NCBI GenBank assembly: GCA_965207995.1
Contig: CBDBNG010000001.1
Span: 4,681-68,680, forward strand
Length of the DNA stretch: 64,000 nucleotides
Direction: 5' to 3'
From: Dehalococcoidia bacterium
GTDB lineage: Bacteria; Chloroflexota; Dehalococcoidia; SHYB01
The notes under the pieces were generated by a model that made no database searches, was not told where the DNA came from, and was given only the letters and a program-made list of their open reading frames with translations. A program made the position numbers and the translations under genes. Of this stretch, positions 15,781 through 31,972 are shown piece by piece. Every line of letters starts with the position of its first letter. Within the stretch, counting starts at the first letter, position 1.

Positions 15781-17467
15781 CTCGCTCGATTACGCCAGCC
15801 AATCGAGAGGAATCGCACAGCGATTTCTTCGTAATGTCCTTTTGCTGGACGACCGAGCCTCCATGGGGCCTTCGCGTATTTTGAGTAGACGGCAATCTGC
15901 TTTGGAGACCCCTGGTCCTGAATCCGTCGACGTTGAATTGCCTGCCGCTGGCCAGGTATTGGCTGGCGCGGAGTCTTTAGACGCTAAAGAGGTTGTTAGA
16001 GGGTTTGCCAAACTGGGCCTAATGTGTGCCCCGTTAGTCCCTGATATCGATGGTGCAGGAGAAGAAGATACTTTCGTGAACGATTTTTGCGAGGCTGCAG
16101 AAAGGGCAGACATCCTGGTTCTCGATTGGTGGATGAGCGGCAATCGGAATTGGAGCAAGCCTCAGTTGGCGCAAAGAGTGATTCGGAGAATTATTGAACG
16201 AGACCAAACTGCCGGGGGTAGGTTACGCTTAGTTGCAATCTATACTGGAGAACCAAATACAACTCGAATTCTGGAGAAGCTGAAGACTTTGGTGCGGCAA
16301 CGATATCAAGGATTCAACCTGTTGCCTGCAGAGGTGGCTGGTCAACCGAACGTTGATTGGCTGTCCAAAGGTCCATTCCGCTTGGTGGTCATTCCGAAGA
16401 ACCCTGGAGCAACTGTAGGTGATCCAATAGCGGGACGTGATTTGGCAGATCGGCTGGTACAGGAGTACTCACAGTTAACGCGTGGGTTACTGCGAAACGT
16501 AGCATTCTGTGGATTAGCGGCTTTGAGAGAGCGTGCCCATCAGTTGCTTGCTACCTTTGAGAATGACATTGACCCTGCATTCCTTATCCATCGAGCATTG
16601 CTAGATGATACTAATGACGCCGAATCCCATGTCATTGAGATACTGGGTTCGGAGTTGTTGGCAATTCTCGAAGACCAAGAAGTAGGTGCGGAAGTTGGAG
16701 ACAATGCCATAGATAGGTGGCTGAGTCACTATGGACAAGATGCATTCGTCAACGTGAGCGGCTTATTGAAGTGGGGACAGAGCACGATCGATGCATGGAG
16801 TCGAGTCTTGACTCGCGGCGCGGGCTACAACGGTCGTCCGGAAGGGGTGTCGAGGAAGGATGTGGACGAATTGGTTGAAGTGCTGAGAAGCGACGGAACG
16901 CAAGCTCTACTACCTAGAGAAGGGAACCTTAATGATGATAGCTATCAGGAGATGGCTCGGCAAGCAAACTTCAAACTCGCTTCTTTGATGAATACAAGAA
17001 ATGTGTACACAGACAAACATCCATATTTGACGTTAGGGACAGTTCTGTTTCGTAAACGCGACGGGAAGTACTTTGTTTGCCTCCAGCCGAAGTGCGATTC
17101 CGTTCATTTGAGGGGAAGCAGACCCTTTCCTTTACTTTCGCTGTCCATTGCGGAAGAGCATAGCAAATACAATTTAGTCCTCAGAGATGAAGGATTGGAG
17201 AACGAATGGGTCTGGCTCGTTGTCCGAGCGGGATCTAGGAGTCTCGAATTGCCTACATTCACGCCTGAAGAAACGTCTGGGAAGGTTATCGCGACAAAGA
17301 GAGCCGGGGGTCTTTCTTTCAAGGATGACAAGAATGCGGTATATCGTTGGGTGGCTGCGATGAAGGATGAACATGCCCTGAGGATTGTAAACGAACTTGC
17401 CTCTAATCTGGCTAGGCCGGGCCCAAACGACTCAGAATGGCTACGACGCAACTTCCCGCAGACATAG
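15764..17467 (+). CDS. 567-aa protein with N-terminal receiver (REC)-like domain and uncharacterised C-terminal region
   Basis: REC-like landmarks are NVLLLDD (beta1 acidic pair), ADILVLDWWM (phospho-acceptor Asp position) and LRLVAIYTGEP (Thr position). No recognisable effector motif was seen in the C-terminal 400 aa. It overlaps the upstream gene by 17 nt. Confidence 0.55.
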   Translation: MTGVNSSLDYASQSRGIAQRFLRNVLLLDDRASMGPSRILSRRQSALETPGPESVDVELPAAGQVLAGAESLDAKEVVRGFAKLGLMCAPLVPDIDGAGEEDTFVNDFCEAAERADILVLDWWMSGNRNWSKPQLAQRVIRRIIERDQTAGGRLRLVAIYTGEPNTTRILEKLKTLVRQRYQGFNLLPAEVAGQPNVDWLSKGPFRLVVIPKNPGATVGDPIAGRDLADRLVQEYSQLTRGLLRNVAFCGLAALRERAHQLLATFENDIDPAFLIHRALLDDTNDAESHVIEILGSELLAILEDQEVGAEVGDNAIDRWLSHYGQDAFVNVSGLLKWGQSTIDAWSRVLTRGAGYNGRPEGVSRKDVDELVEVLRSDGTQALLPREGNLNDDSYQEMARQANFKLASLMNTRNVYTDKHPYLTLGTVLFRKRDGKYFVCLQPKCDSVHLRGSRPFPLLSLSIAEEHSKYNLVLRDEGLENEWVWLVVRAGSRSLELPTFTPEETSGKVIATKRAGGLSFKDDKNAVYRWVAAMKDEHALRIVNELASNLARPGPNDSEWLRRNFPQT

Positions 17468-17746
17468 GTGGCTCGGTATGCAGGAGGCTTACGACCTGAG
17501 GCAGGCGCGAGGGCGAGCAATGGGGAAACGTGGTTGAGGACTCTAGGACTGCCATTCTGAGGCAGTTAGCGGAGAGAGACCATCTCCAAGGCTCTTGAGA
17601 TTGCGAACGAGATGAATCTTCAAGCCACCGACGGGTCACGTAGCTTGAGGGTCTCACGGAGCAAGTAGGCCCCTATATCAGAGCATGGGATGTTGACGAG
17701 TGCTACCTCACGGAGGAATTGACGCCTCAGAAATTCGCGACGGCAA

Positions 17747-18361
17747 TCAATCTCCCTTCACCCCGGCAGACTGGTGCTTGCGGACGTACTGGTCGAAGCG
17801 GTCCGCATATTCTCCAACCAATTGAACTGTTCTCGCTCCCATCCCCAGCAGGCTCGCGTTACCAGGGCTGTCCAGCGTCAGCAGAGGCTTACCCGTTTCA
17901 GCGAGCTTGTGGGCAAAGGCTTCAGTCTTACTTCCGGGTGCTGCGTGAGCGATGAAGACTCGCTGGGCGAGGTCGGCTACCAGATCATTGCGCTGGGCTG
18001 CGAGCTCCGCGGTCGGTCGTCGGGCTGTGGCCGGGAAGGGCGACAGGACCAGCAGGCGGCCGTCGTCTAGAGTTGGGCGCCATTCGCGAGGGATTCGCAT
18101 GTTGTCGATGCCGCGGGCCGGGCAGACGACCACCGGCTGACTTCCTCGAAGCAGCAGACGCAGACATTCCCGCTCCATCGGAGTTTGGAAGCCGCCGATG
18201 ACGGGAACGCCGGCATCGCGCATGGCTCTGGCAAGGTCATAGGTCTTCAGGATGAGATTGCCGGGGCAGCGATTGGAGCAGAACATGGCCGTAAGGGTCT
18301 CGTCAAGCAGGCTTAGGTTGCCCTTCGACTTGACTTCCGGTAGTAGCTCCAAGTTCACCAT
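17747..18361 (-). CDS. Stand-alone SLOG-superfamily (DprA/Smf/LOG-like Rossmann) domain protein
   Basis: GVPVIGGFQTPMERECLRLLLRGSQPVVVCPARGID...LLVLSPFP resembles the DprA/LOG Rossmann core. It lies directly downstream of an SMODS-like NTase on the same strand. Confidence 0.5.
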   Translation of the reverse strand: MVNLELLPEVKSKGNLSLLDETLTAMFCSNRCPGNLILKTYDLARAMRDAGVPVIGGFQTPMERECLRLLLRGSQPVVVCPARGIDNMRIPREWRPTLDDGRLLVLSPFPATARRPTAELAAQRNDLVADLAQRVFIAHAAPGSKTEAFAHKLAETGKPLLTLDSPGNASLLGMGARTVQLVGEYADRFDQYVRKHQSAGVKGD

Positions 18362-18377
18362 GCCGCCCCCGTCTGCC

Positions 18378-19223
18378 TTAGTTCCCTATGCAGAACAGGG
18401 CGTTGAACGCTGTCCTGGTCTTGCAGCGCTTGACCTCGGCGCGCATCTGTCCAAAGTACGTTGAGGCCCGCTGGCGAGTTCCAGAATCTGCCGGGCCAAG
18501 ATATTCGTCCACGTATCTCGACTGCCCCGTGGAATCTTTGATCGGACTCTTTACCGCATCCATCGAGTGCCCCAATAGGTGAATCAGCATGTTCTTCGGG
18601 TCGAGGGGTCCTTGATAGCCCTTGAACGCGTCGATTGCTAGAGACTCCATGTGGTAGCCACTGATCTTCCTGCTGGGACGGCTGATGAAACAGTCCGCCA
18701 TCGCCTTGGCAAGTTTGATTACCGGAACTACTCTGCCGTCCCTCGCCGTATTGACTTTGGCGAGGTTCCGGGCAAAGTCATCAGGCCGCGCCACGTTGCT
18801 CCACTGGTTGCTCCCCGGGTTGGCAATCCGAACGCCGCCAGTATTGGTCCGTAAGGCGGGCAGTATCTGAATCTCCGTCCCGTCGGAGTAGCTGACCGTC
18901 ACCGCTAGATTGCCCGCGCTTACGGTATTCTGCCGAAGCCGATCCTGGATGGTCTCCCGCACGTACTCTATGGCTCTTGCAGGAGGCTGATTTACAAGCG
19001 AAGACTGGTTCACTATGAGTAGAGCGTCGACATCGCTGAGGCCGGTCACGTAAGTGCCCTTCCGCACCGAACCGCCGAACATGGTTTGCACGACATCGCC
19101 CTTCTGCCTGAGGAACCCACACAAGTTTTCCAGACGCTGAGTGACAGTCTGCGTGTTCCTGCGGGCGTACTGTGCGAGCAATGCCTCGCAGTATTCATTG
19201 AACCTATCGTCTGGCACGGTCAT
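18378..19223 (-). CDS. SMODS / CD-NTase-like nucleotidyltransferase (Pol-beta superfamily)
   Basis: The FGGSVRKGTYVTGLSDVDALLIV motif is GS-x9-11-SDxD, with a later acidic residue in SYSDGTE. The start is set at MTVPDD (ATG 19223), which overlaps the vapC stop as ATGA. Confidence 0.6.
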   Translation of the reverse strand: MTVPDDRFNEYCEALLAQYARRNTQTVTQRLENLCGFLRQKGDVVQTMFGGSVRKGTYVTGLSDVDALLIVNQSSLVNQPPARAIEYVRETIQDRLRQNTVSAGNLAVTVSYSDGTEIQILPALRTNTGGVRIANPGSNQWSNVARPDDFARNLAKVNTARDGRVVPVIKLAKAMADCFISRPSRKISGYHMESLAIDAFKGYQGPLDPKNMLIHLLGHSMDAVKSPIKDSTGQSRYVDEYLGPADSGTRQRASTYFGQMRAEVKRCKTRTAFNALFCIGN

Positions 19224-19675
19224 GCGTCCGCTTCCGTCTCGACCAGATCGTCCAAGATGACGAAGGGCAAGCCCTCGACGCGGCGAAAGTCGGTGTCGTT
19301 TGTAATGAAGGCAGCGCAGCCAGCACTCAGAGCCGTCGCGGCGTGAAGTGCGTCGGGTGTCGCTAAGCCCGTCTCGGCGCGGATGCGAGCGGCATCTTCC
19401 CAAGTTGCCAGGGTAGCGGGGATGAGGTCCATCTCCGCAGCGGCAAGGATGGACCGAAAAAGCGCCTCAAGACGGGAGTTGCCGTCTCGCAGGGGTCTGA
19501 CCAAGGTTTCCAATGCAACCAACTCGCTGCTTACCAGAATGAACCGGCCTGCCTTGGCCTCTTCCCACATCGGAGCCAACAGACCGTGGTAAGGCTCAAT
19601 CCGTTCTACGCTGTAGATGATCGCATTGGCGTCGACGTAGACCAGCCCGCCGGCGGGCAGCCTCAACGGCCCCAT
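19220..19675 (-). CDS. vapC: PIN-domain toxin (VapC)
   Basis: LVYVDANAIIY...ITNDTDF has the PIN acidic residues. The gene is 151 aa and directly follows the antitoxin gene. Confidence 0.85.
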   Translation of the reverse strand: MGPLRLPAGGLVYVDANAIIYSVERIEPYHGLLAPMWEEAKAGRFILVSSELVALETLVRPLRDGNSRLEALFRSILAAAEMDLIPATLATWEDAARIRAETGLATPDALHAATALSAGCAAFITNDTDFRRVEGLPFVILDDLVETEADA

Positions 19676-19914
19676 GATTCCTTCTCTTCCTTCAAGTAGG
19701 CCGCCACTTCCGCCGCCGTCTTGAAAGCCAATCCCCCCGGCGCTTCGGCCAGAATGTCAACCGCAGACCGCCGTTCTGACACCGATGACTGGCTGACGAC
19801 CACATCGACGGACTCCCCCACAGGAAGCCCCTGGTCTACGATCTCTATCTTTCCCCCAGGCTGTACAGTCGTCCGTACATGCAGCGCTTTTTGCATCTGC
19901 TTGCCCTCCTTCAT
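19663..19914 (-). CDS. Antitoxin (VapB-like, probably AbrB/MazE-type swapped-hairpin)
   Basis: It is an 83-aa ORF immediately upstream of vapC with a 13-nt overlap. Confidence 0.6.
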   Translation of the reverse strand: MKEGKQMQKALHVRTTVQPGGKIEIVDQGLPVGESVDVVVSQSSVSERRSAVDILAEAPGGLAFKTAAEVAAYLKEEKESWGR

Positions 19915-19959
19915 TCACAAACTAGTCGTCGTACAACGGCCCCATAGTTCCTTCTCTTC

Positions 19960-20706
19960 CTACATATGGGCCGTAACGTCGGCCGCCATCTTGAAAGTCA
20001 GGCCTCCCGGCACTTCTTTCAGGATGTCAACCACGGACCGCCGTTCTGACACCAGCGATTGGCTGACGACCACATCGACGGACTCCTCCACGGGAAACTC
20101 ATGAGCCAATGCAAGAGTCAGTTGTCGGATGTCGGCCTGGGCGGACGGCTTGTTCCGTTGGAGACGCGGCTTACTGAGCGGCTTCAAGTTATCCTTCATC
20201 TCAACGAGCGTTTCTGCGAAGGTCAACAAGCCTCCAACGTCTTCCGCATAGACGACTAGCGCACCTTCGGCCCCATTGACCAACCCGCAGTTTGCAAGTT
20301 CAGCCGCCTTCAGTAGATTGCGCACACGGCCTTTGCGGCAATAGAAGGCAACCAGTGGATAAGGTTCATGGTGTCCGGGACCACCGGAGCAGCTCGATAT
20401 GGGAGCACAATTCGCCGCTGAAAGGGCGAACACCGCTGCGCCGACGCCAAGGTCGAGATAGGTCTCTTCACCGTTGAGATTCACTACTTCAATGCCAGGA
20501 TTCACTCCGGCTCCTGGCTGTGCAAGACCCTTATGCTCTTCCTCAAGCATCGTGCGGACGTCTTCCCACGTCGCCCCGCGTACGTCTATGTAGCCTCGTG
20601 AGAATATATCTTCGTCGGCGAGGTCACTCTCGGATGGCCATACCATCAGGGACGCATCGATTGTCCGCTGAATCACAGCCCGTTCTCTTGCGGCGGCCCT
20701 ATTCAT
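19960..20706 (-). CDS. Hypothetical 248-aa protein whose C-terminal ~45 aa duplicate the downstream antitoxin C-terminus
   Basis: Its C-terminus EESVDVVVSQSLVSERRSVVDILKEVPGGLTFK matches the antitoxin GESVDVVVSQSSVSERRSAVDILAEAPGGLAFK. The nucleotide repeat is 19935-20095 versus 19665-19825. Confidence 0.4.
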   Translation of the reverse strand: MNRAAARERAVIQRTIDASLMVWPSESDLADEDIFSRGYIDVRGATWEDVRTMLEEEHKGLAQPGAGVNPGIEVVNLNGEETYLDLGVGAAVFALSAANCAPISSCSGGPGHHEPYPLVAFYCRKGRVRNLLKAAELANCGLVNGAEGALVVYAEDVGGLLTFAETLVEMKDNLKPLSKPRLQRNKPSAQADIRQLTLALAHEFPVEESVDVVVSQSLVSERRSVVDILKEVPGGLTFKMAADVTAHM

Positions 20707-21454
20707 CCCAACCTACCTCGCAGGCAAGGTATTCGTGCAGTACCATCCTCACCAGGATTCCTTCTGGAACTTGAGCTACGGCGTAGCGATAAACGCCGTC
20801 TTGAACATCCTGCCAGCCATCAAAGTAGGCTTCTTGAGCAACTCCAGGGCTGTGGATGACGAATGCCCTTTGCATCGCTCTGCTGCCCACTTCCGGCCAA
20901 CCTGTGCCATGCGGGACGTTCTCGAATTGCTCAAGTTGTTGAGCTGTCAACGTCTGAATCGGACAAACTGACACGTGAGACGGTTGCTGAAGCATCGGTT
21001 CACCGAGTTCGTAGAGGACGTGCCCGCGGGCGTTCTTCACGATGACCCGCTCGACGCGGTCGAGTTCAGGCTCCCACAAGACTTCGACGTCACCCCACAG
21101 GTTCCCATGAACTGTTCGGGACCGGTCAATCCGGCTGCCCAATCGGGGGCTGTGGGTCAATATGCCGGAGGCAACAGGAAATCTAATCGGGTCTGGTCTG
21201 GTGGAGCCGCTGAGCACCGAGCCGAGAAAGGCAATGAGGTAATCCTCGTCCGACGAGAATCCAGAGTTGCACTGTCGGCACACTTCCACTACGGGCAAGT
21301 TCTCGGGGTACGGAGGGTTCAAGAGTCCCCGAGTCGGAACGTGGTCCCGATTGGATTCATCGGGTCCCAGCCCGTTCCCGCAATGGACGCAGAAGCCCTT
21401 GTTCCTACTGTCACTGTAGTCAGTCAGTTGGTCCATATTGCAAAGCCTCGCCAC
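20699..21454 (-). CDS. HNH-family endonuclease-like protein
   Basis: FCVHCGNGLGPDESNRDHVPTRGL...CRQCNS has HNH/zinc-finger-like Cys pairs and a DH dipeptide. It has a 4-nt overlap with the upstream MTase gene. Confidence 0.55.
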   Translation of the reverse strand: MARLCNMDQLTDYSDSRNKGFCVHCGNGLGPDESNRDHVPTRGLLNPPYPENLPVVEVCRQCNSGFSSDEDYLIAFLGSVLSGSTRPDPIRFPVASGILTHSPRLGSRIDRSRTVHGNLWGDVEVLWEPELDRVERVIVKNARGHVLYELGEPMLQQPSHVSVCPIQTLTAQQLEQFENVPHGTGWPEVGSRAMQRAFVIHSPGVAQEAYFDGWQDVQDGVYRYAVAQVPEGILVRMVLHEYLACEVGWDE

Positions 21455-24400
21455 TAGTCACTCCGCCCCATGCGGTACTTGATGTCGTAGTTGATGATGA
21501 AGTCCAACTCCTCCTCAGTGAGGCCGTAGTGCTTCGCCAGAACGCGGTCGATATCGTCTATAGTCTCCTTGCTCAACCGTGGGTACGTGGACTGAATTGT
21601 CAGACTTCCCCTGGTGCGGTAATTGATCGTTGACATCTCCGAATGGTTCTGTATGTCCTCCATGAGTTCCTTGGCGAGGTCTGCCAATCGTCGAACCCCA
21701 TCACCGTCATCGAGACTCAACCGCGTCATCTCGATTTCCCGCTTGTTCAGATTTCTGCAATCAGAAAACAAGGTGATCAGCCAATAGAAGAGAGTCGAAT
21801 TAAGAAACGCCAGCACAGCGCCCCTGCTGACCTGACTGTCAAATCTGAGCTCCTTTAGTTCAGAGGGCTTCCTCAGCTTGCCGGCCGCGTCATAGATTGC
21901 TGGAACGAAGTCTAGAATCTGCACGAAGCTGCTCAACTTCCTCGTATAGAAGATTGATTCTTGCCCGGATCTGCTCGCAGGTGCTAGAGGCCTACGATTG
22001 AACTTCCGAAGTATCGACATCTCGATAGGATCCCCAAACTTAGGCAGAAGACCATTGGAATCAGTTCCAGTGGACTCGATGAAAGTCAGCCTTTGGAACA
22101 GTGTGCCTCTTTCCGTGGCTTGCCACTTGTTGTAGGCGGTTGAGAACACCCTTCTTGCACTGGAGCCGACGTTTAGGAGATAAATGGAAAGTCGGCAGTG
22201 CTCGATCCCGTCAAAGAGTCTGCTGGGTCTGTCATTGAAGTGACTTACAACCATACCGCCAGCACTCGCGAGACAGCTTCTCAGGGGAGCGAACCCATCG
22301 GTGCATGCGCCAGACACCGGGACAATCATGCCAAATCGGCCATTGCTCAGGATTGTGAGTGACCGTTCCATCATCATTGCGTACAAGTTGCCGCACTCTT
22401 CGGTCACCATGCCACGAACCGAATACAAACCCTTGACCTTGGTGTACTCGACGTATGGCGGGTTACCAATCACCACATCAAAGCCGCCCTTGCCCATGAT
22501 CCCGTAGAATTCGACGAACCAGTGGAAGGGCTGATGTCTGGCGCACCAAGCGCCGTAGGCAGCGGGCTTGCTAGGGTCGATGCCGTACTCTCGAGCTAGG
22601 TGGCGATCCAGTTCGTCGTCGAGGCTGCGGAGGCGGTTGCGGAGGGCCTGCTTGTCGGCGGAAGTTACCTCTCCACCCAGCATGGTCTGCTGCCAACGGA
22701 ACTGGTTGAAGGCGGCGCTCGCGGTCTCGGCTTCCTCATTGATTCGGTCGAGGGCTGCCTGGTCTTCGGGGAACACCTGCCGGTGCTGGCCGTTGGGCAT
22801 GACCGTCATGGCCTGCCGCACAGCGTCCAGTGACGTGAAGCCGACCAGCGTGTTGCCGGCGCGGACGTTGAAGTCGATGTCCGGCAGCGGCTCGATTTGG
22901 TCGTAACTCTCCAACTGAGCGACCAACTTCAGGAAGAGACGCAGCTTGCATATCTCTACAGCCTCTTCCATGATGTCGACGCCGTAGAGGTTGTTCAGGA
23001 CGATGGACTTGAGGATGAAGTATCGCTCGCTTGGGTGCTTTTCTACCTGCTCCAGGATGCGGCGAAAGTCCCCTAGGTGCTCAGGACTGCGCTTGCGCTC
23101 AGATCTTTCGGCGTCGTCCAAGAATCCCCGCATTCCCTCCAGGCAGGCGGTGTAGAGGGGTTCAAGGACGTTCAGCGCGGCGAAGAGGAACGCGCCGGAG
23201 CCGCAGGCGGGGTCCAGGACAGAGATTCCGGTGTCACTGCGTTCGCGGTTGCCATAGAGAGCGTGCCAGAATGCCCGCAGCAATTCGGGTCCCTCGCTCT
23301 GCGCGATTACATCTCCGGCGAACCTCTCGACGTCAAGGTTGAGTGTGATGAGGTCGTCTACATCCTGCACTTCCCCCGATGCGAGCTTGGCGCGAACCTC
23401 TTCAAATCGAGTGCGGCGGGTTACAACCTCCCGCCATGTCTCGGTGGCGAGCGCGTAGTCGTCTGGCGCAGGGAGGTTCCATCCTCCGCGTTTGGGTACG
23501 TCGTCTATGCCCGCGGCGATATGGTCTGGCAGGTCAAGTGGCGCTTCAAGGCGCTTGGGGTCTTCCGGCTGTCCCGCGTTCCATGCCATGCCGTGGCCGA
23601 CGGCAGGATAGATGTATCGGTCCGGGTTGTCCCGAAGCAAGCGCCATACACCGCCATCCGGCCCAAAGGCCACGGGACACTCCTTCTTGGCGGCATCGAA
23701 CAAGGAGGGGATTACCGTGTTTCGTGAGATGTAGCCGGTAATGTCCTCCCTGGTGTAGTAGGCTCCCATCTGCTTCTGGTTGACGTACTTCTCGAAGATG
23801 TATCCAAGCACGTCGGGGTTGATCTCGTTGTCCTCCCGGTATGGCCGCTCGTCCAGGTGCCAGCGGTAGCCGTCGAAAAAGTCGAAGACCCGCTCGAACG
23901 CCTTGTCGGGGATGGAGATGTCCGGGTTGTCTCGCTCCAGATCGTGTACGTCGAAGAGGCCGCCATTGAGGAAGGGCACCCTGCCAAGAAGGGCGGCCAG
24001 GTCAGGAGCGCGTTGGGCTTCGGGCTGGCCGAGACCCTCATGGAACAGCCGCAGGAGGAAGAGGCGGTAGAACTGCTGGAAGCGTCCACTGCCGCTCTGC
24101 TCCTGGACCATCTTCAGGCGGTTGCGCAGGTAGTCGTGGTCCTCGTCTAGGAAGCCCTGCTTCTGGACGAAGTAGACGAACATCATGCGGTTGAGCATGA
24201 GGGAGGCATACCAGTCACGGTCGCCCTGGGCCGTGATCCCATCGATGAAGTTCCCGAATGTCTTCAACTCTTTCTGGAACCGTTCGTAGAAGCGCTTGGT
24301 AATCTTCTCGACATCTAATGCCGCCCGGACCCGAGAGGCGATAAGGGCAATGTTCAGCGACGGCTCTTCATCCAAGGAGACGAACAAAGGCTGAAGGCGT

Positions 24401-24792
24401 TGGAGTAGGTGGTCTCCGCTTGCGCCCGTAGTAACGGCGTACTCGCGGCAGGCGGCAGGCTTACCGCTTTCTCGCCTGACCCACTGCCAGACCTGCGCCT
24501 TACGGCCCGGGTCGGTGAAGATGATGAGGTGCTCGAATGTGCGCTTGGCAACCTCGCTCTCAATCTTGCGTCGGACCGGGTACTGGGGGACGTTGTTGTC
24601 GACGCTGGAATCGCACTCGTAGACTGCGAACCCCGCTTTCTCCGCAATTGGGTTGATCGTGTAGTCCCGGTCGTTGACTCGGACGACGAACGGCTCCGTG
24701 GGGTAGTGGTCCCATCCCAGCCCTTCGACGAAGAGACGCGGGAAGTCGAAAGCCCGTAGATGGGGGCGTAGCTCTTCAATCGAGACTGGCAT
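21454..24792 (-). CDS. Eco57I/PglX-family N6-adenine DNA methyltransferase (1112 aa; BREX PglX-like / DISARM DrmMI-like)
   Basis: Motif I is VLDPACGSGAFLFAAL, motif IV is VIGNPPYV, and a GAYYTRED motif lies upstream. Its size is typical of PglX-like enzymes. Confidence 0.8.
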   Translation of the reverse strand: MPVSIEELRPHLRAFDFPRLFVEGLGWDHYPTEPFVVRVNDRDYTINPIAEKAGFAVYECDSSVDNNVPQYPVRRKIESEVAKRTFEHLIIFTDPGRKAQVWQWVRRESGKPAACREYAVTTGASGDHLLQRLQPLFVSLDEEPSLNIALIASRVRAALDVEKITKRFYERFQKELKTFGNFIDGITAQGDRDWYASLMLNRMMFVYFVQKQGFLDEDHDYLRNRLKMVQEQSGSGRFQQFYRLFLLRLFHEGLGQPEAQRAPDLAALLGRVPFLNGGLFDVHDLERDNPDISIPDKAFERVFDFFDGYRWHLDERPYREDNEINPDVLGYIFEKYVNQKQMGAYYTREDITGYISRNTVIPSLFDAAKKECPVAFGPDGGVWRLLRDNPDRYIYPAVGHGMAWNAGQPEDPKRLEAPLDLPDHIAAGIDDVPKRGGWNLPAPDDYALATETWREVVTRRTRFEEVRAKLASGEVQDVDDLITLNLDVERFAGDVIAQSEGPELLRAFWHALYGNRERSDTGISVLDPACGSGAFLFAALNVLEPLYTACLEGMRGFLDDAERSERKRSPEHLGDFRRILEQVEKHPSERYFILKSIVLNNLYGVDIMEEAVEICKLRLFLKLVAQLESYDQIEPLPDIDFNVRAGNTLVGFTSLDAVRQAMTVMPNGQHRQVFPEDQAALDRINEEAETASAAFNQFRWQQTMLGGEVTSADKQALRNRLRSLDDELDRHLAREYGIDPSKPAAYGAWCARHQPFHWFVEFYGIMGKGGFDVVIGNPPYVEYTKVKGLYSVRGMVTEECGNLYAMMMERSLTILSNGRFGMIVPVSGACTDGFAPLRSCLASAGGMVVSHFNDRPSRLFDGIEHCRLSIYLLNVGSSARRVFSTAYNKWQATERGTLFQRLTFIESTGTDSNGLLPKFGDPIEMSILRKFNRRPLAPASRSGQESIFYTRKLSSFVQILDFVPAIYDAAGKLRKPSELKELRFDSQVSRGAVLAFLNSTLFYWLITLFSDCRNLNKREIEMTRLSLDDGDGVRRLADLAKELMEDIQNHSEMSTINYRTRGSLTIQSTYPRLSKETIDDIDRVLAKHYGLTEEELDFIINYDIKYRMGRSD

Positions 24793-27700
24793 CAGGAGTC
24801 GCCCTCCGTATCGAATAGGCCCAGGGAGCAGATGATCTGAGGCTCCTGGGCATCGACGGCAGCGTCCCCCGTCAGGCAGAGTCTGTCCTCCTCACGCAGC
24901 GAAATGACGATTTCGGCCAACTGGTCGTCGGAGACGCCGCTTCGGAGCTGCCGGTTCAGGGTGTCCACTGCCGACGGGCGCAGAGGATAGCGGTAGATGT
25001 CGTCGATGGCCTTGTGAAGTGCTTCCACGTCGAACAACTGACCCTTGATGGCGTCGGCGTGGGCTTTCAGGCGAGTGTAGGTGCGGAAGCGAGCGCCGGA
25101 GGGCCGTCCAAGCTGGCCTCCGACTCGCTTCTCCTCCATGACGACGTGCCTGACGCCCTCGGCAACAAGCTCGTGGTGGCTCTCGTGGTGAGGCTGAGCC
25201 GGGGTGTCAGGCTTGCACTCGGCGGCGGAGAGAATTTCAAGCTGCGACTCGGTGATGCTCTGTCCATCGCGGTCCACGTATGCCAGGGCATTGTTGCCAT
25301 CGGCGGTGCGCATGAACACCAGCACGCCTTCGGGCCGTTGAGCAATGGGCGCGTGCTCACGCGAGGAGAAGACGACGTCCGGCAAGTCAGCCACGGCCTT
25401 CTCCAGTCGCGGGTCTGACCCGATGGCGTTCTTCCATATCTGGTAGGCGTGGGACGCCAGGTCTACGTCGCCCTCCGGGTCACCGTCCAGGATGCCGGCT
25501 CGCTCGTGGTACAGGTTGAGGATTGCCTGATCGTCGTCTTCATCCTCGAAAAACGCCTCGTCTGCGCCGACCACCTCGGCGTTCTCCCTGAGCCGCTCCC
25601 GGACCCGGCCGCGCAGGTCGATGATGCGCTCGACACCCTCGGCCGGTAGGAAGGAGTGGCAGAGAATCTCCTCCGCCTTCTGTCCGATGCGGTCGACGCG
25701 GCCAGCACGCTGGATGAGACGGATGATTGCCCAGGGCAGGTCGTAATTCACAACTACGTGGGAGTCCTGGAGGTTCTGGCCCTCGCTCAGCACGTCGGTG
25801 GCGACTAGGACGCGAAGCTCCCTCTCAGGTTTGCTCTGGCCCGGCCGCTGGTTACTCTCCGGGCTGAATCGCCATGCCGAGTCCGTGGGGTCGGCGGAAC
25901 TGCCGGTGACTCCTGCCATGTCCGCAACTCCTCTCTTCTTGAGCTGCGCTTCCAGGTAGTAAACGGTGTCGGCGAATTGAGAGAACACCAGCACCTTCCG
26001 GTCTGGGAATGTCTTCGTCAGCAGTGAATTGAGCGCGTCGAGCTTTGCGTCCTTGGCGGGGTCCCACTCTCCGTAGGTCTGGAGTATGTCCAGGAGCGCG
26101 TTGGAGTCCGAAAGAAGCTCGCTTTCAAGGGAACCTTTGAATAGATCGGCGCGGAGCCACTTGAATCGGCGACTGTAGCGGCCCTCGTACTCAACGTAAA
26201 TCTGGGCAGCCCTCGCCTCGAAGTCGGAGGTAGTCCAAGCGCTGCCGGTCTTCTCGACCGCTTCCTCCTGATCGTCGTCATCAGGGTCGAAGAGAGCGCC
26301 CTTCGCCTGGTCCGCGTCCTCGTCGGTGAATCGCGAGTCCAGCATCTCGGCATCCTGCGTGCCAAGCGGCAAAGGGAGGCCGTTCCTGATGGCGTGGAGG
26401 AAGACGTAGTTGCGGAGCACGTGACGCTCGACCGATTGCAGGAAGGCCGCGCCACTGCTCTCCAGGCGTTTGAACAGGTTGGTGCGGCAGAATCCGATGA
26501 GCCGCTTGCCAGCCCGCGAAAGGTCGTCGATCTGACCCTCCTCTTTCTTGCTGTGTGGTGTCTCCGGGTTATCGAGCACGTAGTTACCCAGGCCGTACCT
26601 GGGCAGGTGCAGGTGTTTCACTATGTCGACCACCTTCGGCGAGTACAGCTTGGCGTATTGGTCATCGGGGTTGGAGTCGTCGATGGCGAACTTGACTGTC
26701 TTAGGTACGCGCGTAGGGAAGAAAGAGCGGGTCCCGTCCTCGTAGGTGAGGAACTTACGGCGAGTCTCCTGGTCCGTCTCGGCATAGTTGTCCTGGATGA
26801 AGCTACGGGTGCGGCGCACCAGGTAGAGGCGCATCAGGTCTCGCCAGTCGTCGGCGTACTCGCTGAAGTCGAAGGCTGCCAACGTGCGGAGTCCAGCCTG
26901 GTGGCGCCGGACGAACTCCACCTCGCCCAACTCACGCAGGAGTCGTTCGGGGCGGATGCCCAGGTCCTGGTCTTCCTCCACGAAGATGCGGAGTTGGCTG
27001 GACAAATCCAAGTACGTCTTGTTGTAGGGCGTGGCCGATAGAAGGATGCACTTGCTCTCGTTGGCTCGAACGTACTCTTGGATGGCTCTGTAGCGGCGGC
27101 CCTCGCGGTTACGGAGGTTGTGGCTCTCGTCGATGACGACAAGGCGGTAACGGCGCAAGGTGGGCAATTCGCCGAGCACCCGGCTCAGGGATAGCACTCT
27201 GGCCCGAAGCTGGTACTGGTACGCGTAGTCTTCCCACATCGGGACGAGGTTCTTCGGGCAGATGATGAGGGTCTCCAACCCGTAGTCGTCCTCGAAGATG
27301 CGAGCGACGGCGGTGGCCATAAGCGTCTTGCCAAGTCCCACCACGTCCCCGATGAGAACCCCGTTGCGCTTGTTCAGGTGATGGGCCGCAATCTTGACCG
27401 CTGCGGCCTGGAAGTCGAAGAGCCGGTCGCCGAAAACCTTGGGAATCCTGAACTCAGCGAGGCCGGCGCGAGCTTCGTGGGAGAGGTGATAGGCCATTTT
27501 CAGGTAGACGTGGTAGGGAGGTATCAGGGTCTCCCGCGCCCAGCTCTTTTCGATGATCTGGAGCAGCTCGTCCGTGATGTCCACGCAGAAGCGGTCGTTC
27601 CACCTGTCCTCGAACCACTGCTTGAGCTTCACCGTTGCGTCCTGGTCAAGCACGTCCACGTTCAACTCGCCCTGTGCCGACAGACCGGCGAAGGTCAGGT

Positions 27701-28187
27701 TGCTGCTTCCCAGGTAGCCCACGATGGGGTTGATGGGATCGTTGCGAAACATGAGGTAGAGCTTCGCGTGTAGCGGGTGACCGAGAAAGAGCTTGACTAC
27801 GACCTTCTTGGCGCGAAGCTGCGCGGCCAGTTGTCGCAAGGTCCTTTCGTCGGCATTGGTAGGAGCGCCGATGGTGAGCTGCTGGCGAAGCTGTTCGGCC
27901 AACTGGACTCTCAGACGGTGCGCCGTCTGGTTGTCCATGCCCGAGGGCCTATCGATTAAACTCAGGGCATCCCGTAGGTCTTCGTGCGGAAGTCTCTGCA
28001 TCCCGATGAGTACGCGACACGGCCCGTCACCGTCACTCCAGCCATCTACCTGCGGCGCAAGCCCGCCCCAACCGCGCAGGTTGAAATAGCCTACGCAGAA
28101 GTCTGCTCTGGAAGAGAGCTTCAGAGTCTCCTGTAACGCAGGCAGGAGACTGTAACCGGGCGAGAGGTTGTCGAAGATACGCGGCAT
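24792..28187 (-). CDS. PLD-family nuclease domain fused to SNF2-family helicase (1131 aa), with a ~300-aa uncharacterised C-terminal extension
   Basis: The N-terminal HKD motif is HAKLYLMF...GSSNLTFAGL. The helicase carries GDVVGLGKT (Walker A), VIDESHNLRN (DExH), LLSATPYNKT and QRAGRVDRIGQ (motif VI). Confidence 0.8.
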   Translation of the reverse strand: MPRIFDNLSPGYSLLPALQETLKLSSRADFCVGYFNLRGWGGLAPQVDGWSDGDGPCRVLIGMQRLPHEDLRDALSLIDRPSGMDNQTAHRLRVQLAEQLRQQLTIGAPTNADERTLRQLAAQLRAKKVVVKLFLGHPLHAKLYLMFRNDPINPIVGYLGSSNLTFAGLSAQGELNVDVLDQDATVKLKQWFEDRWNDRFCVDITDELLQIIEKSWARETLIPPYHVYLKMAYHLSHEARAGLAEFRIPKVFGDRLFDFQAAAVKIAAHHLNKRNGVLIGDVVGLGKTLMATAVARIFEDDYGLETLIICPKNLVPMWEDYAYQYQLRARVLSLSRVLGELPTLRRYRLVVIDESHNLRNREGRRYRAIQEYVRANESKCILLSATPYNKTYLDLSSQLRIFVEEDQDLGIRPERLLRELGEVEFVRRHQAGLRTLAAFDFSEYADDWRDLMRLYLVRRTRSFIQDNYAETDQETRRKFLTYEDGTRSFFPTRVPKTVKFAIDDSNPDDQYAKLYSPKVVDIVKHLHLPRYGLGNYVLDNPETPHSKKEEGQIDDLSRAGKRLIGFCRTNLFKRLESSGAAFLQSVERHVLRNYVFLHAIRNGLPLPLGTQDAEMLDSRFTDEDADQAKGALFDPDDDDQEEAVEKTGSAWTTSDFEARAAQIYVEYEGRYSRRFKWLRADLFKGSLESELLSDSNALLDILQTYGEWDPAKDAKLDALNSLLTKTFPDRKVLVFSQFADTVYYLEAQLKKRGVADMAGVTGSSADPTDSAWRFSPESNQRPGQSKPERELRVLVATDVLSEGQNLQDSHVVVNYDLPWAIIRLIQRAGRVDRIGQKAEEILCHSFLPAEGVERIIDLRGRVRERLRENAEVVGADEAFFEDEDDDQAILNLYHERAGILDGDPEGDVDLASHAYQIWKNAIGSDPRLEKAVADLPDVVFSSREHAPIAQRPEGVLVFMRTADGNNALAYVDRDGQSITESQLEILSAAECKPDTPAQPHHESHHELVAEGVRHVVMEEKRVGGQLGRPSGARFRTYTRLKAHADAIKGQLFDVEALHKAIDDIYRYPLRPSAVDTLNRQLRSGVSDDQLAEIVISLREEDRLCLTGDAAVDAQEPQIICSLGLFDTEGDS

Positions 28188-28195
28188 TGAGGCCG

Positions 28196-28456
28196 TTACT
28201 CCTTCTTCTCTGATGTTCCCGCTTGGGTTTCCTCTCCGCCATTGGGAGTCAGCATTCCGGCGGGGCGAGTCTCTGGCTCATTGCCACCACCGGCTTCCAC
28301 CCATTCGTCCACCTCAGAGAGCCGGAATCGCAGGAGCCGTCCGACCTTGCGCGTTGGGAAGCCCTTGGTGTAAATCCAACGGTAGATGGACTCTTTGCCC
28401 ACGCTCAAATGGGCAGCCACCTCTCCGATGTTGACCCAGCCCTCTTCAGACGCCAT
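28196..28456 (-). CDS. Excisionase-family (HTH_17/AlpA-like) DNA-binding protein
   Basis: IGEVAAHLSVGKESIYRWIYTKGFPTRKVGRLLRFRLSEVDEWV. It heads the helicase-MTase-HNH operon. Confidence 0.75.
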   Translation of the reverse strand: MASEEGWVNIGEVAAHLSVGKESIYRWIYTKGFPTRKVGRLLRFRLSEVDEWVEAGGGNEPETRPAGMLTPNGGEETQAGTSEKKE

Positions 28457-28690
28457 GTTCCACCATCTCCTTTAGGAAGGAAAACCCACAAGCTACAATG
28501 AGAATATAAGACTATGCACTTCAATCAGTCAATGCTCTTGATCCCTCTTGATCCGGCATCAGCGCAGCGGATAAACAGCCTCCAAGAGCAGAACAAAGTA
28601 CGGTCATTGATGGAGGTGAAGAGGTGGGGACGACAGACATGCCGGTAGAGAGGGAGGCCATCCAATTCGGATAGCCTCCCTCTCTTGTAC

Positions 28691-29839
28691 CTAAGCAGTC
28701 GCCGGTCTAGGCTGCACCAGCAGTGCGGCGTAGCTGGGAGCCACCACGTGCTCCACCGACACCTTCCCTGCGCCGTCGTACCCGGTGCGGAAGGCGTACT
28801 CCACCTCCGCGCCCCAGGGCACGCGCCCGCCGACGCGCACCGCTCCGCCCCTGGCCGTGCCGTCGCGTCCGCGAGCGCCGTGCACCACCATGCCGCTGCG
28901 CTCTCCCTTCTTCCAGCCCAGCACCTTCATGGCCACGGGCATCACCCGCTCCGAGTCCTCCGCCCGCCGGAACAGCGCCCCGTGCAGCTTCCTGAGTACC
29001 ACGGCTGACGGGGTGCTTCTGCCGTTCATGATCTGGGAGAGGTGGCCGGAGCTGATGCCCGCCCTACGCGCCACCTCGTTCTGGCTGACGTCGAGCTCCT
29101 TCATCCGGTCCCAGACGGCCTGTTGGTCGAGGTTGGGACACTGGGCGGACGCGACCTTCGCCCGTCCCCCAAGCATGGCCTCGACCCTGGCCTGGAGCTT
29201 CACCCCCATGCTACGGTGCCCTCTGGACACCTGGCTGAGGTACCCGGCGGACACACCGACCTTCTCGGCCAGTTCTCTCATGGTCATGCCCAGGGCCCGG
29301 GCGGTCTCCCGGATGAAGCTGCTGGCCTCACTCTCGATCACGTCACCCTGGCGGTTGGCGAGCTGGGCGGGGGCGACCCTGGCCGCCACCCCAAGCGCCG
29401 ACTCGATGCTGGCCTGCACCTTGGGTCCCATGTTCCGGCGACCCCTTGCCACCTGGGTCAAGTAGCCGTAGGAGACCCCCGACCGGTCGGACAGTTCCAG
29501 CATGGTGATTCCTATCTCGCGTGCGCGCTCCCGGATGAAGGTACTTTCTGCATCTACCTCGCGGGTCTGTCGGTAGACGATCCCCTGCCCAGGGACCTCT
29601 CCCAGCACGGCCATCGCCTTCTCCCGCAGGTTGGGGGTCCAGGGCTTCTTGCCCGTGCCGACCTGGGAGAGGTGGCTTGCGCTGACGCCCATCAGGGCCG
29701 CAAGCTCCTTCAAGGTGAGGCCGCGCTTCCTGGCGGCGGCCCTCAGCTCGCTCTCCGGCCTGCCCCTGCGCTCTTCGGACGCTGCCGCATTCCTCGTTGT
29801 CTTCGTCGAGTTGATCGTCGTGGTGGTTGCCGTCGTCAT
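28691..29839 (-). CDS. DNA-binding protein with four tandem XRE-type HTH modules plus a C-terminal domain
   Basis: Four repeats of the pattern L(E/K)ELA...GVS.G(H/Y)LSQV..G appear (for example LTLKELAALMGVSASHLSQV and ITMLELSDRSGVSYGYLTQV). The start is set at MTTATTTT (ATG 29839) with RBS AGGAGA 6 nt upstream. Confidence 0.7.
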   Translation of the reverse strand: MTTATTTTINSTKTTRNAAASEERRGRPESELRAAARKRGLTLKELAALMGVSASHLSQVGTGKKPWTPNLREKAMAVLGEVPGQGIVYRQTREVDAESTFIRERAREIGITMLELSDRSGVSYGYLTQVARGRRNMGPKVQASIESALGVAARVAPAQLANRQGDVIESEASSFIRETARALGMTMRELAEKVGVSAGYLSQVSRGHRSMGVKLQARVEAMLGGRAKVASAQCPNLDQQAVWDRMKELDVSQNEVARRAGISSGHLSQIMNGRSTPSAVVLRKLHGALFRRAEDSERVMPVAMKVLGWKKGERSGMVVHGARGRDGTARGGAVRVGGRVPWGAEVEYAFRTGYDGAGKVSVEHVVAPSYAALLVQPRPATA

Positions 29840-30802
29840 GTCGCTTCTCCTTTCAATGAAGAAGCGGGACGGCCTACCACCCCCGTGGGGTAGAGACAGT
29901 CCCGCTCGAATTGGTTGTCCCGAATGCCGGGACTGTCTCCGTGGGTATTTGTGCTGGCCTTGCCTTCGCCCTGGTTCGGGCAAAGAGAAGCGCCGCTCCT
30001 CGTGGACGGAGAAGCGGCGCTGTGCTCGCCAACTGCTATGTGGGCCTTCCTTGCGAGAGGCCGGAGCGTGAAGCTGCCGAAGCAACTCCGAAACCCCGAC
30101 CTCGCCTACCGTTTAATCAACGTGCATACGCACCTCCTGATTTTGAGCTTCTTGACCCGCGCGGCATCCGTGTGCGGGTCGTGTTTGATGGGTTCGTTCG
30201 GCGCAAGACGCACTCCGCCCACGGTCGGATGCCGGACGCGGGGACGAAGGGGATGAGATGGACGCAACTCGGCCCGGGGTCACGTCACGGGGGAGCGACT
30301 TGGAGGAGCTGCGTTGAAGAGGATGAGACCGGCCTGAATTTCAGTCCGAGACCGGCGCGGTGAGAGAGCGACGCAGCCCTGCGGGGTAATCACAGGACGG
30401 CGTGCATGGAAGCTGCGACCCAACCGCGTGACGGTTGCGCCGCAGGCGTGGGGAATGGCCGGGCGCAGGGCGCACTCCGACCAATGTTCTCCGTACTCGC
30501 TACGGAGTCTCCCGTCTTCCGAGTCGGCGTCGGGGGAGCGGTGCTCGACCCCTGTGCCGGCTCACGCAGCGGGAAGGCGCTTGTCCCTCGTGGAACGCCG
30601 TCGGGAGAGCAGGGCTCGATCCGTCGGGCGGCTCCGGGTCGGGGATGGACCCTCCAGGTTTCTCAGGCGCGAAACGCTGGAAAAAGCCAGAAACTGACTC
30701 GATTATCGCCCCGCCGTCGGGCAAATGGAAGGGTTTGGGGGCCTTTCGGCCCACATTGCTCGCTCTGGCTTAGCTCCCGTTTCGCAGGGTGCGGGGAAGG
30801 TC

Positions 30803-31660
30803 CTACTCTCTCCACAGCCCGCAGCTCAGTATCCGCCGCAGCCACAGTCGCAGCAGCGCCCGGTTCCGCTCCACGCGGGCATCCCCCAACGACTGCCTTC
30901 TTCGCCACGCCTGATCCCGCTGGTCGAACTGGTCCCAGGGATAGGACGCCGGGGGCAGCGTCAACCCGTGCTCCTCGATGAGAGCGATCTCCAGGGTCAG
31001 CATCCTGGCCTTGGCCTCCGCCCTGGCCAACGCCGTCCCGGCCTGAGTTGTCCCCCGGTGCTCGTTCCTGGCCTCCCGCCATTCGACGATCACCGGCGTG
31101 GCCTTGCCATAGACCCTCTCCTCTCCATCCTCGGCTTCCAGGGTCACCAGCTGGGGATACGTCCTGGGCGGCGCGTACCCCCGCGTCGTGCGGTCCGTCT
31201 CCGTGGGGGTCGAAGAGACCCGCCCGCCTTCGGCCCCTGCCGATTCCAGGGCCACCAGCCGCCGCTCCACGTGCCGCATACCCATGGCGTGCTCCTCCCG
31301 CAGCCCGTCGCTCCGGCCCTCGGCGTCTTCACGGGAGGCTTGAATCTCCCCTTGCAGTTCCGTCACCTGCTCCTCCAACTCCGTCACCCGCTTACCCTGC
31401 TTCATCGCAGCCGACAGGTCCCGCTCCAGCAACAGCCGCTCCAGCGCGGCGGACAGCCGGGGAGTGAGCCTCCCCCTCTTCCTGCACCGCCACAGCGTCT
31501 TGCGGCCGATGCCCAGCTTCCGCGCCGCCTTCACCTGGCCCAACTCGTCCATGAGGTCGTTCAGCAGGGCCGTCATCTGCAATTGCCGGGGACTCTCCAG
31601 GCTCGGGGTAGCCCCCGACCATTCGGTCTGTCGCTCGTTTGGCGTCCGTTTTTCTTCCAT
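30803..31660 (-). CDS. Hypothetical HTH plus coiled-coil protein
   Basis: LGQVKAARKLGIGRKTLWRCRKRG is HTH-like and is followed by a long charged helical region. The start is uncertain because direct repeats offer two ATGs. Confidence 0.4.
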   Translation of the reverse strand: MEEKRTPNERQTEWSGATPSLESPRQLQMTALLNDLMDELGQVKAARKLGIGRKTLWRCRKRGRLTPRLSAALERLLLERDLSAAMKQGKRVTELEEQVTELQGEIQASREDAEGRSDGLREEHAMGMRHVERRLVALESAGAEGGRVSSTPTETDRTTRGYAPPRTYPQLVTLEAEDGEERVYGKATPVIVEWREARNEHRGTTQAGTALARAEAKARMLTLEIALIEEHGLTLPPASYPWDQFDQRDQAWRRRQSLGDARVERNRALLRLWLRRILSCGLWRE

Positions 31661-31922
31661 GTTCCACTTGACCCATTCCGTAGCTGTCGCTGACCCATAA
31701 CTTCCGCAAACGCCATGTTCCGCTTGACCCATCTCCTAGCTGCGGCTGCCCCATGACCGTGGAGCGAACCCCGGAGACAAAGTGCTCGCAGGTTACGTCC
31801 GGTAGGGGGGTCTTCCCCGCCTGTAGCAGCTTGCCCACGACCCAGCCTGCTCCCCGTTCACCGGAGTCCTTTCCCTGTACACGGGTATCACACCACACCC
31901 GGCCCGCCATTTGTCACGCCCT

Positions 31923-31972
31923 GTGAGGGGGGTCAGTACACAGACCCGGGCCAGCGAACTGACCCCCCTCAC
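31923..31972. promoter_or_regulatory. Perfect 15-bp inverted repeat GTGAGGGGGGTCAGT...ACTGACCCCCCTCAC with a 20-nt loop. It is either a transcription terminator or an oriT-like hairpin ahead of the conjugation gene block.
   Basis: Seen directly at 31923-31937 and 31958-31972. Confidence 0.5.

Follow-up and report, generated by a model that had tools for sequence, protein, structure and literature searches.

We consider a locus in a stretch of 64,000 nucleotides (nt) from a contig of a Dehalococcoidia bacterium (below, the window; all coordinates are given on it). The core of the locus is formed by two adjacent genes, one encoding a protein of 1131 amino acids (aa) in which a phospholipase D (PLD) nuclease domain is fused to an SNF2-type helicase, and the other, an N6-adenine methylase of 1112 aa. 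A preliminary description of this DNA listed four co-directional open reading frames (ORFs) on the minus strand, 28196–28456 (86 aa), 24792–28187 (1131 aa), 21454–24792 (1112 aa) and 20699–21454 (251 aa), and their coordinates are exactly as given there. The boundary drawn after the fourth ORF has to be moved: the co-directional array continues past 20699 down to 17747, and the DprA-like gene at 17747–18361, outside the unit as described, had been missed. The two core genes and this third gene are the following.

24792–28187, minus strand: core gene 1, PLD–SNF2 protein, 1131 aa (Pfam, PADLOC and NCBIfam matches and motifs)
21454–24792, minus strand: core gene 2, methylase, 1112 aa (Eco57I and MmeI_Mtase in Pfam, PDLC03628 in PADLOC)
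17747–18361, minus strand: DprA/Smf-like (SLOG-superfamily) Rossmann-domain protein, 204 aa (PADLOC PsyrA, profile comparison with PDB)

The helicase–methylase pair

The stop codon of the helicase gene and the start codon of the methylase gene have one base in common (TGATG), and the 1-nt overlap reported for this junction is thus borne out. The arrangement was studied in 80 species loci, the best of at least 600 with matches (denoted below by L and a number), which span more than 12 phyla and encode helicases 49–94% identical to that of the window. In 75 of the 80 loci the contig reaches far enough beside the helicase gene to be informative for adjacency, and in all 75 a methylase homologue adjoins the PLD–SNF2 gene, hence the adjacency is not due to chance. 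In one of them, L038, the gene order is reversed and the adjacency is kept. The pair is also found on plasmids of Pelobacter, Synechocystis, Anabaena, Rhodococcus and Pseudarthrobacter; in the annotated plasmids the helicase gene is always followed by a gene named "DNA methyltransferase", and the gene after that varies from record to record. Since the methylase is present in 75 of 75 informative loci, while the other genes described below, namely the HNH-like gene, the 248-aa ORF and the HTH_17 gene, rarely recur, the system is a two-gene pair. The helicase and the methylase are translationally coupled and strictly co-inherited.

The 1131-aa ORF has Pfam matches to PLDc_2 / RE_NgoFVII (residues 112–196), SNF2-rel_dom, DEAD, ResIII and Helicase_C. 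The protein consists of an N-terminal PLD nuclease domain with a single HKD motif (residues ~110–200), an ATPase core of helicase superfamily 2 (SF2), SNF2 type (~240–870), and a conserved C-terminal region. In eight homologous sequences, 39–60% identical, H140-x-K142, GSSN160–163, the Walker A motif GLGKT284–288 and DESH353–356 are invariant, and so are the residues of motif VI. The earlier statement that an HKD/PLD domain and a complete SNF2 core are fused in this protein is therefore confirmed, with the motifs intact and invariant across diverse homologues. The last ~250 residues (~880–1131; 24792–25500) are conserved family-wide, with invariant residues up to position 1123, and have no Pfam match. 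There are at least 8000 homologues of the helicase-nuclease in the protein database, and at least 600 species genomes contain matches. Plasmids of cyanobacteria, Desulfuromonadia and actinomycetes carry full-length copies; none was found in phage records. In PADLOC, the match to the "HKD+Snf2" model C3a139 is stronger than the partial matches to DrmD; the label of this model originates in a survey of accessory genes of type III CRISPR systems.

The 1112-aa ORF matches Eco57I (E 6e-23) and MmeI_Mtase in Pfam, and encodes a gamma-class N6-adenine methylase of the Eco57I/MmeI/PglX superfamily. It is composed of an alpha/beta N-terminal domain (residues 1–125), a helical domain similar to those of HsdM and MmeI (127–345), the methylase core and a C-terminal specificity region. 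Motif I, DPxCGSG (527–533), and motif IV, NPPY (777–780), are invariant across the homologues and show no degeneration, in agreement with the identification of the protein as an N6-adenine methylase in the preliminary description. A search of the single methylase sequence against solved structures yielded no match. The profile of the family matched BrxX/PglX (E 1e-11), TaqI and MmeI in the methylase core only.

Conservation of the methylase across the family is highest in its N-terminal third. In the AlphaFold model of residues 1–345 (mean predicted local distance difference test score, pLDDT, of 84), the alpha/beta domain 1–125 has pLDDT of about 80–95 and is followed by the helical domain. 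The alpha/beta domain has no significant fold match, the matches to restriction-endonuclease-like proteins being weak, and the alignment of homologues contains no conserved D...(D/E)xK pattern within residues 1–125. Its invariant residues are G26, W27, K52, P69, E87, H88 and W102. The domain sits at the position occupied in MmeI by the nuclease and is N-terminal in proteins of about 1040–1190 aa; its matches form 840 clusters at 50% identity (E <=0.001), or 400 at E <=1e-10. Our reading is that this domain is specific to the family and serves partner binding or regulation, the alternative being an unconventional nuclease.

The literature contains only passing mentions of such a system and no name for it that we could find; in a survey of programmed inversions, Type II restriction–modification genes were noted beside a gene encoding PLD and SNF domains. 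The pair is thus a widespread, unnamed, restriction-like system of two genes, often of three, the third one being the DprA-like gene.

The DprA-like gene and the embedded genes

The 204-aa ORF has a sub-cut-off Pfam match to DNA_processg_A (E 5e-6), and a profile of its family compared with PDB retrieves DprA (E 1.5e-6). It is not a DprA orthologue, as the TIGR00732 model yields 23 bits against the cut-off of 191. The invariant residues of the family are G14, S29, G57, E63, A82 and R124–N125. The protein resembles the antitoxins PsyrA (PADLOC, E 2e-13) and ShosA (9vzo in the profile comparison, E 3e-4) of the PsyrTA and ShosTA systems. PsyrA partners an SF2 (RecQ-like) helicase toxin, whereas here the PLD–SNF2 protein and the methylase take the place of the partner, and the DprA-like protein, at 147–246 aa, is much shorter.

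Of the 80 loci, 20 have a homologue of this gene in the same orientation downstream of the pair; among them are loci from Desulfobacterales, Burkholderiales, Verrucomicrobiota, Bacteroidota, Ignavibacteriota, Deinococcota, Fibrobacterota and Cloacimonadota. The homologue comes immediately after the methylase gene in several loci, and the two ORFs overlap by 4 nt in L036, L051 and L052; in others, one to six unrelated genes stand between them. Loci with the DprA-like gene in the terminal position include L015, L036, L049, L051, L052 and L083. The presence of the gene tracks the methylase subtype: it was observed in 19 of 31 loci whose methylase is of the window type, that is, aligns over most of its length, and in 1 of 17 loci with the other type, which diverges after the first half (Fisher p = 1.8e-4). 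No homologues of the DprA-like protein were found on plasmids at E 1e-5.

In the window, five genes separate the methylase gene from the DprA-like gene: the HNH-like gene, the 248-aa ORF, two genes of a vapBC-like pair and a CD-NTase gene.

20699–21454, minus strand: HNH-like protein, 251 aa from GTG or 245 aa from ATG (conserved CxxC..DH..CxxCN, weak HNH_5)
19960–20706, minus strand: chimeric ORF, 248 aa (residues 204–248 are a duplicated vapB fragment)
19220–19914, minus strand: vapBC-like pair (antitoxin-like 83-aa ORF, 19663–19914; PIN protein, 19220–19675)
18378–19403, minus strand: CD-NTase (CBASS-type oligonucleotide cyclase), 341 aa as listed (NCBIfam CBASS_cyclase_b, PADLOC Cyclase)

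The HNH-like gene overlaps the methylase gene by 1 nt if it starts from GTG, and is separated from it by 17 nt if the first ATG is used; the 4-nt overlap given previously was not observed. The label "HNH" itself is weaker than had been claimed, since the Pfam HNH_5 match (E 0.0069, 16.7 bits) is below the cut-off of 27.5. What speaks for it is the CxxC...DH...CxxCN pattern (C16, C19, D31, H32, C53, C56, N57), retained in 35 homologues, and the top, though weak, Foldseek match of the model (pLDDT 85), the Gme HNH nickase 4h9d (probability 0.92, E 0.21), covering only ~46 residues. The C-terminal domain of ~180 aa has no structural match and no known relative. The family has ~1,900 members, and the helicase–methylase pair is absent from the three unrelated contexts that were sampled. 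Only one of the 80 loci, L011, has the HNH-like gene beside the core pair. Thus, of the three-gene unit proposed initially, the helicase–methylase part stands and the HNH-like member does not.

The 248-aa ORF, which overlaps the HNH-like gene by 8 nt, recurs in none of the 80 loci. It has no match in Pfam, PADLOC or NCBIfam, and its residues 1–203 have no detectable relatives. The last 45 residues are 73% identical to residues 30–74 of VapB, and a direct repeat of 170 nt (19664–19833 and 19934–20103) has 82% identity. Hence vapB has been partially duplicated, the repeat is a recombination scar at the insertion point, and the ORF is chimeric. We also considered this ORF as a partner of the HNH-like gene, and rejected it: in L090 the neighbour of the HNH-like homologue shows no similarity to it.

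The vapBC-like pair contains a PIN-domain protein (PIN, E 4e-20), and such a pair is also situated downstream of the methylase gene in L004, L005, L010 and L023. The cyclase scores 221 bits with CBASS_cyclase_b (cut-off 200) and E 4e-93 with PADLOC Cyclase. Its true start is probably near 19220, since the cyclase match begins near residue 66–73 of the ORF as listed. The CD-NTase gene stands directly upstream of the DprA-like gene not only in the window, but also in L011 and L023. No standard CBASS effector adjoins it in the window. Relatives of the CD-NTase on plasmids of Bacillus and Pseudanabaena belong to operons with a QueC-like gene, in Pseudanabaena also with a SLATT effector with two transmembrane segments; all of these are absent from the window. 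The possibility that the DprA-like gene is a mere effector of the adjacent cyclase was rejected, as only 2 of the 20 loci carrying it (L011, L023) have a cyclase homologue, and the plasmid relatives of the cyclase reside in QueC-type operons, one of them with an effector, SLATT, unrelated to the DprA-like protein.

The same slots, in the gap between the helicase and methylase genes or after the latter, are occupied elsewhere by AlbA_2/HATPase_c_4 genes, ATPases AAA_15/21 with DUF4276, KilA-N, Fic, DUF3800 and PIN genes, and by nucleases of the MTaX1–HNH_2, YhcG, Mrr and GmrSD types. In particular, the gap contains vapBC in L002 (Synechocystis plasmid pSYSX), KilA-N in L051–L053 and AlbA_2/HATPase_c_4 in L056 and L071, and the AAA_15/21 ATPase with DUF4276 follows the methylase gene in L006, L020 and L087. 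In L013 (Bryobacterales) an MTaX1 (methylase-associated) domain fused to an HNH_2 nuclease (16915–17916) is encoded between the methylase and DprA-like genes; this HNH_2 belongs to an HNH family different from that of the window. Hma operons likewise carry inserted defence genes, and variable "auxiliary or backup effectors", nucleases among them, have been described in BREX-related systems. The helicase–methylase operon appears to receive insertions of defence genes quite generally. Within the explanation of the whole locus that we think probable, the HNH-like gene, the chimeric ORF, vapBC and the CD-NTase gene are interchangeable inserted cargo rather than subunits.

On the other side of the pair, the upstream end of the array has two features.

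28196–28456, minus strand: HTH_17 / excisionase-family DNA-binding protein, 86 aa (Pfam HTH_17, E 8e-13)
28503–28532, minus strand: promoter-like site TTGACT-18-TATATT, 10/12, ~47 nt upstream of the HTH_17 start codon

The stop codon of the HTH_17 gene is 8 nt from the ATG of the helicase gene. The NCBIfam model MAD1 yields 54 bits for the 86-aa ORF, below the cut-off of 80. The preliminary description had assigned to this gene the role of the leader of the system, which is not supported: a homologue is found upstream only in L004, L005, L010, L011, L012 and L023, and weakly in L030 (Fibrobacterota), where the tblastn match has 42% identity. We also rejected the idea that the system generally has HTH_17, or some other small regulator, upstream: of the 27 small ORFs in that position, only 4 are HTH_17, all in close relatives from the Chloroflexota. 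Hence this gene is a putative lineage-specific regulator and not a universal component. The promoter-like site is followed, ahead of the HTH_17 gene, by a ribosome-binding site AAAGGAGA. The evidence for the promoter is positional only, as the region 17000–29500 contains one sigma-70-like match against 2.9 expected by chance, and such a scan is uninformative for this phylum.

Relation to known systems and a possible mechanism

None of DrmA, DrmB, BrxC, PglZ, DUF499 and DUF3780 was found among the scanned ORFs of the window (most of those of at least 150 aa, with Pfam, PADLOC or NCBIfam), in line with the earlier remark that DrmA/DrmB and the BREX core genes are lacking. The locus had nevertheless been called DISARM-like, and its 1131-aa protein, a DrmC–DrmD fusion. 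This is correct for the domain composition only. The SNF2 helicase, PLD nuclease and N6-adenine methylase activities of class 1 DISARM are all present here, but the first two are fused in one protein, while class 1 DISARM also has DrmA, a YprA-type DEAD helicase, and DrmB (DUF1998). The helicase is not a DrmD orthologue, as DISARM_DrmD gives 133.6 bits against the cut-off of 610 and DrmD_b, 68 bits against 950; neither is the methylase an orthologue of DrmMI, the best PADLOC match to which (E 1e-23) is partial and far weaker than that to the Type IIG model PDLC03628. The relation to BREX is at the superfamily level: the PglX equivalog models score 57, 47, 37 and 32 bits with cut-offs of 400–900, and there is no PglZ phosphatase, BrxC/PglY ATPase or other BREX gene among the scanned ORFs. 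Thus the locus belongs neither to class 1 DISARM nor to BREX by any of these tests.

The closest characterised relative is MANTIS (formerly Gao_RL or Gao_29; "Type-2 BREX-related"), and its MtsC/MtsD pair is a closer analogue than DISARM. In MANTIS, which restricts unmethylated DNA, MtsC is an N6-adenine methylase supplying the specificity, and MtsD has an N-terminal single-HKD PLD nuclease domain and an SF2 helicase-like ATPase; MtsD dimerises so that two subunits form one PLD site, and resembles SauUSI. The window has the same architecture, an N-terminal HKD nuclease–SF2 effector with an N6-adenine methylase. However, the window helicase is not an MtsD orthologue (NF042964, 132 bits against the cut-off of 1100; PADLOC PLD_Helicase matches the C-terminal lobe only), the methylase has an extra family-specific N-terminal domain, and the usual third gene is DprA-like. 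Moreover, methylation in MANTIS requires the AAA+ loader MtsA, a DUF499 protein, and the DUF3780-type MtsB. Neither was found in the window, and we recognised neither of them in the gene clusters that recur across the 80 loci. No recurrent cluster of ATPases of ~1000 aa was seen in these loci; a 972-aa neighbour in L025 has no Pfam match.

Hma, composed of the SNF2-nuclease HmaA, the methylase HmaB and the DUF499 ATPase HmaC, shares with the window a nuclease-fused SNF2 helicase and an N6-adenine methylase, and its operon is also an insertion hotspot for other defence genes. It differs in having a C-terminal PD-(D/E)XK nuclease instead of the N-terminal PLD domain and in needing the DUF499 ATPase; the PADLOC HmaA match to the 1131-aa protein is partial (E 7e-23). 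An SF2 motor and a nuclease cooperating with a modification function, as here, are found in Type III and Type ISP systems, SauUSI and PbeA (of PbeABCD), the latter two with the same order of the HKD nuclease and the SF2 helicase. However, Type III systems have a beta-class Mod and a PD-(D/E)XK Res, Type ISP enzymes consist of one polypeptide, SauUSI lacks a methylase and attacks modified DNA, and PbeA works with an ABC ATPase and DndE. A sequence search against solved structures detected no match to any of these four. In the literature, modules of HKD and SF2 helicase are regarded as the component responsible for restriction in Type I/III-like systems. Finally, as in Type IIG and IIL enzymes (MmeI, Eco57I), the methylase and the specificity region are here combined in one large polypeptide of the Eco57I/MmeI family; the differences are that the N-terminus of the window methylase has no conserved PD-(D/E)XK pattern and that a separate motor-nuclease always accompanies the methylase.

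We consider it reasonably probable that the locus is a two-component, ATP-dependent, restriction–modification-like system carried by an integrative conjugative element, with the DprA-like protein as a modulator, the intervening genes as cargo and HTH_17 as a lineage regulator. By analogy with MtsC/MtsD of MANTIS and with the HKD and SF2 modules of Type I/III-like restriction, it may operate as follows. The methylase would read a short DNA motif by its C-terminal specificity region and mark the host DNA with N6-methyladenine, which would serve as the mark of self. On unmarked incoming DNA, the site-bound methylase would recruit or license the PLD–SNF2 protein, which would then travel along the DNA by its SNF2 motor. 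As the PLD domain has a single HKD motif, two subunits would have to dimerise, forming one PLD active site, before the DNA is cut; BfiI, SauUSI and MtsD provide the precedent. The DprA-like protein, if the analogy with PsyrA and ShosA holds, would modulate the nuclease, probably by restraining it.

Several points weigh against this two-component reading. PADLOC REase_MTase_IIG (PDLC03628) covers the whole methylase (1216 bits, E 0), and one relative of the methylase is named "type IIL ... MmeI" by NCBI, that is, the curators took this methylase for a self-contained enzyme. The invariant K52, E87 and H88 might together make up an active site of an unconventional kind. The MANTIS methylase depends on its AAA+ partner for loading on DNA, and no such partner is present here, while HmaA, a SNF2-nuclease fusion, defends against T4 alone, without its methylase. 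The survey covers the best matches only, and its ORFs were called by a simple longest-ORF rule, which is crude. What the sequences establish directly is the identity of the domains, the intact catalytic motifs, the strict linkage and translational coupling of the two genes, the variability of the inserts and the lack of AAA+/DUF499, DrmA/B and PglZ partners; for every member of the family, methylation, restriction and the direction of control are inferred.

The first of these points suggest two independent systems: a self-sufficient Type IIG/IIL methylase with an N-terminal nuclease, situated where MmeI has one and showing weak fold matches to restriction-endonuclease-like proteins, and a stand-alone PLD–SNF2 protein, Type IV-like or abortive-infection-like, as the self-reliance of HmaA would allow. 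We consider this unlikely. The adjacency in 75 of 75 loci together with the stop/start overlap is hard to reconcile with independence, no canonical PD-(D/E)XK pattern is conserved, and the strong conservation of the N-terminal third, with a domain bound to this family, fits a partner-binding role.

The position of the CD-NTase gene directly upstream of the DprA-like gene, in the window and in L011 and L023, is the basis for another reading, in which the DprA/SLOG-like protein would be a nucleotide-sensing switch and the PLD–SNF2 nuclease would be gated both by the methylation status and by a cyclic-oligonucleotide alarm, a hybrid of restriction–modification and CBASS. We regard it as quite doubtful.

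The pair might also be primarily not an anti-phage system but an addiction or exclusion module stabilising a conjugative element, with post-segregational killing when methylation lapses, or else an epigenetic regulator. Consistent with this are the location in a conjugative element in the window and on many plasmids, the frequent toxin–antitoxin genes nearby, and the lack of a full-length copy in the phage records. However, the neighbourhood is dominated by defence genes, and at the molecular level the pair would work just as in the two-component reading, the difference concerning the selective benefit and not another machine; as the primary role, we find it improbable.

The initial model, an obligate complex of the PLD–SNF2 protein, the methylase and the HNH-like protein as a second nuclease subunit, led by HTH_17, agrees with the co-directional genes and their overlapping or near-abutting junctions in the window, with the same order in L011, with the frequent presence of a nuclease in the slot after the methylase (MTaX1–HNH_2 in L013, YhcG in L017, Mrr_cat in L023) and of GmrSD and PDDEXK_3 genes in or beside other operons, and echoes the "auxiliary or backup effectors" of BREX-related systems, but it is highly improbable, given that the HNH-like gene is missing from 79 of the 80 other loci and its family lacks the pair in the three sampled contexts, that HTH_17 is limited to one lineage, and that in several loci the methylase is immediately followed by the DprA-like gene or by nothing conserved.

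Both the modules of the two-component system and its logic are known from elsewhere. The novelty lies in a core of strictly two genes, in the family-specific N-terminal domain of the methylase, in the DprA-like partner and in the slot for cargo. BREX, DISARM, Hma and MANTIS are only now being resolved mechanistically, and each of those studied so far needs extra ATPases or helicases, whereas this family appears to be a minimal version with one methylase and one motor-nuclease. On a view more modest than the hybrid with CBASS, the family would define a new class of motor nucleases that are directed by a methylase without a loader, have a DprA-like regulator and include a slot for exchangeable defence cargo. 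It would provide an easy two-gene model for asking how unmodified sites pass from a PglX/MmeI-like methylase to a PLD-helicase, what substitutes for the AAA+ loader of MANTIS, and which roles DprA-like proteins play in defence. There are also consequences for annotation: the only strong PADLOC model for the family is of the "Type IIG" kind, and such models would label the methylase only and hide its obligate partner; moreover, in a defence island genes may overlap and share a direction without being subunits of one system, as an operon can be a landing pad.

The surrounding mobile element

The GC content falls from about 0.65–0.70 to 0.50–0.62 at about 10–29 kb, and the locus lies within this low-GC island. 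The island is adjoined by conjugation genes (about 30000–46000), of which four are listed.

32672–33652: TrbL/VirB6
36213–38474: VirB4/TraC-like ATPase
39646–42423: coupling protein
42420–44078: relaxase-like protein

Hence the defence island, and the locus with it, is cargo of an integrative conjugative element. The nearest relatives, among the matches listed, are from Dehalococcoidia genomes, with protein identity of 92–94%. The locus is flanked by the CD-NTase gene and by a separate system of three genes on the plus strand (11038–17467).

11038–12336, plus strand: C5 cytosine methylase (Dcm)
12757–15780, plus strand: 1007-aa protein with HATPase_c_3, HEF_HK and HATPase_c domains
15764–17467, plus strand: Response_reg_2 protein

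In L011, the C5 methylase gene and a homologue of the gene for the 1007-aa protein also come after the DprA-like gene. A seemingly conserved neighbour cluster of 254-aa ORFs ("C3") proved to be an artefact, consisting of antisense ORFs within methylase genes truncated by contig ends.

The region 28691–30085 on the minus strand encodes a protein with four HTH_3 repeats. The ORF is listed as 464 aa, while the homologues have ~370 aa, and the true start is probably downstream of the listed one. The protein may be a part of the backbone regulation of the element, and its gene is retained upstream of the HTH_17 gene in L004, L005 and L012.

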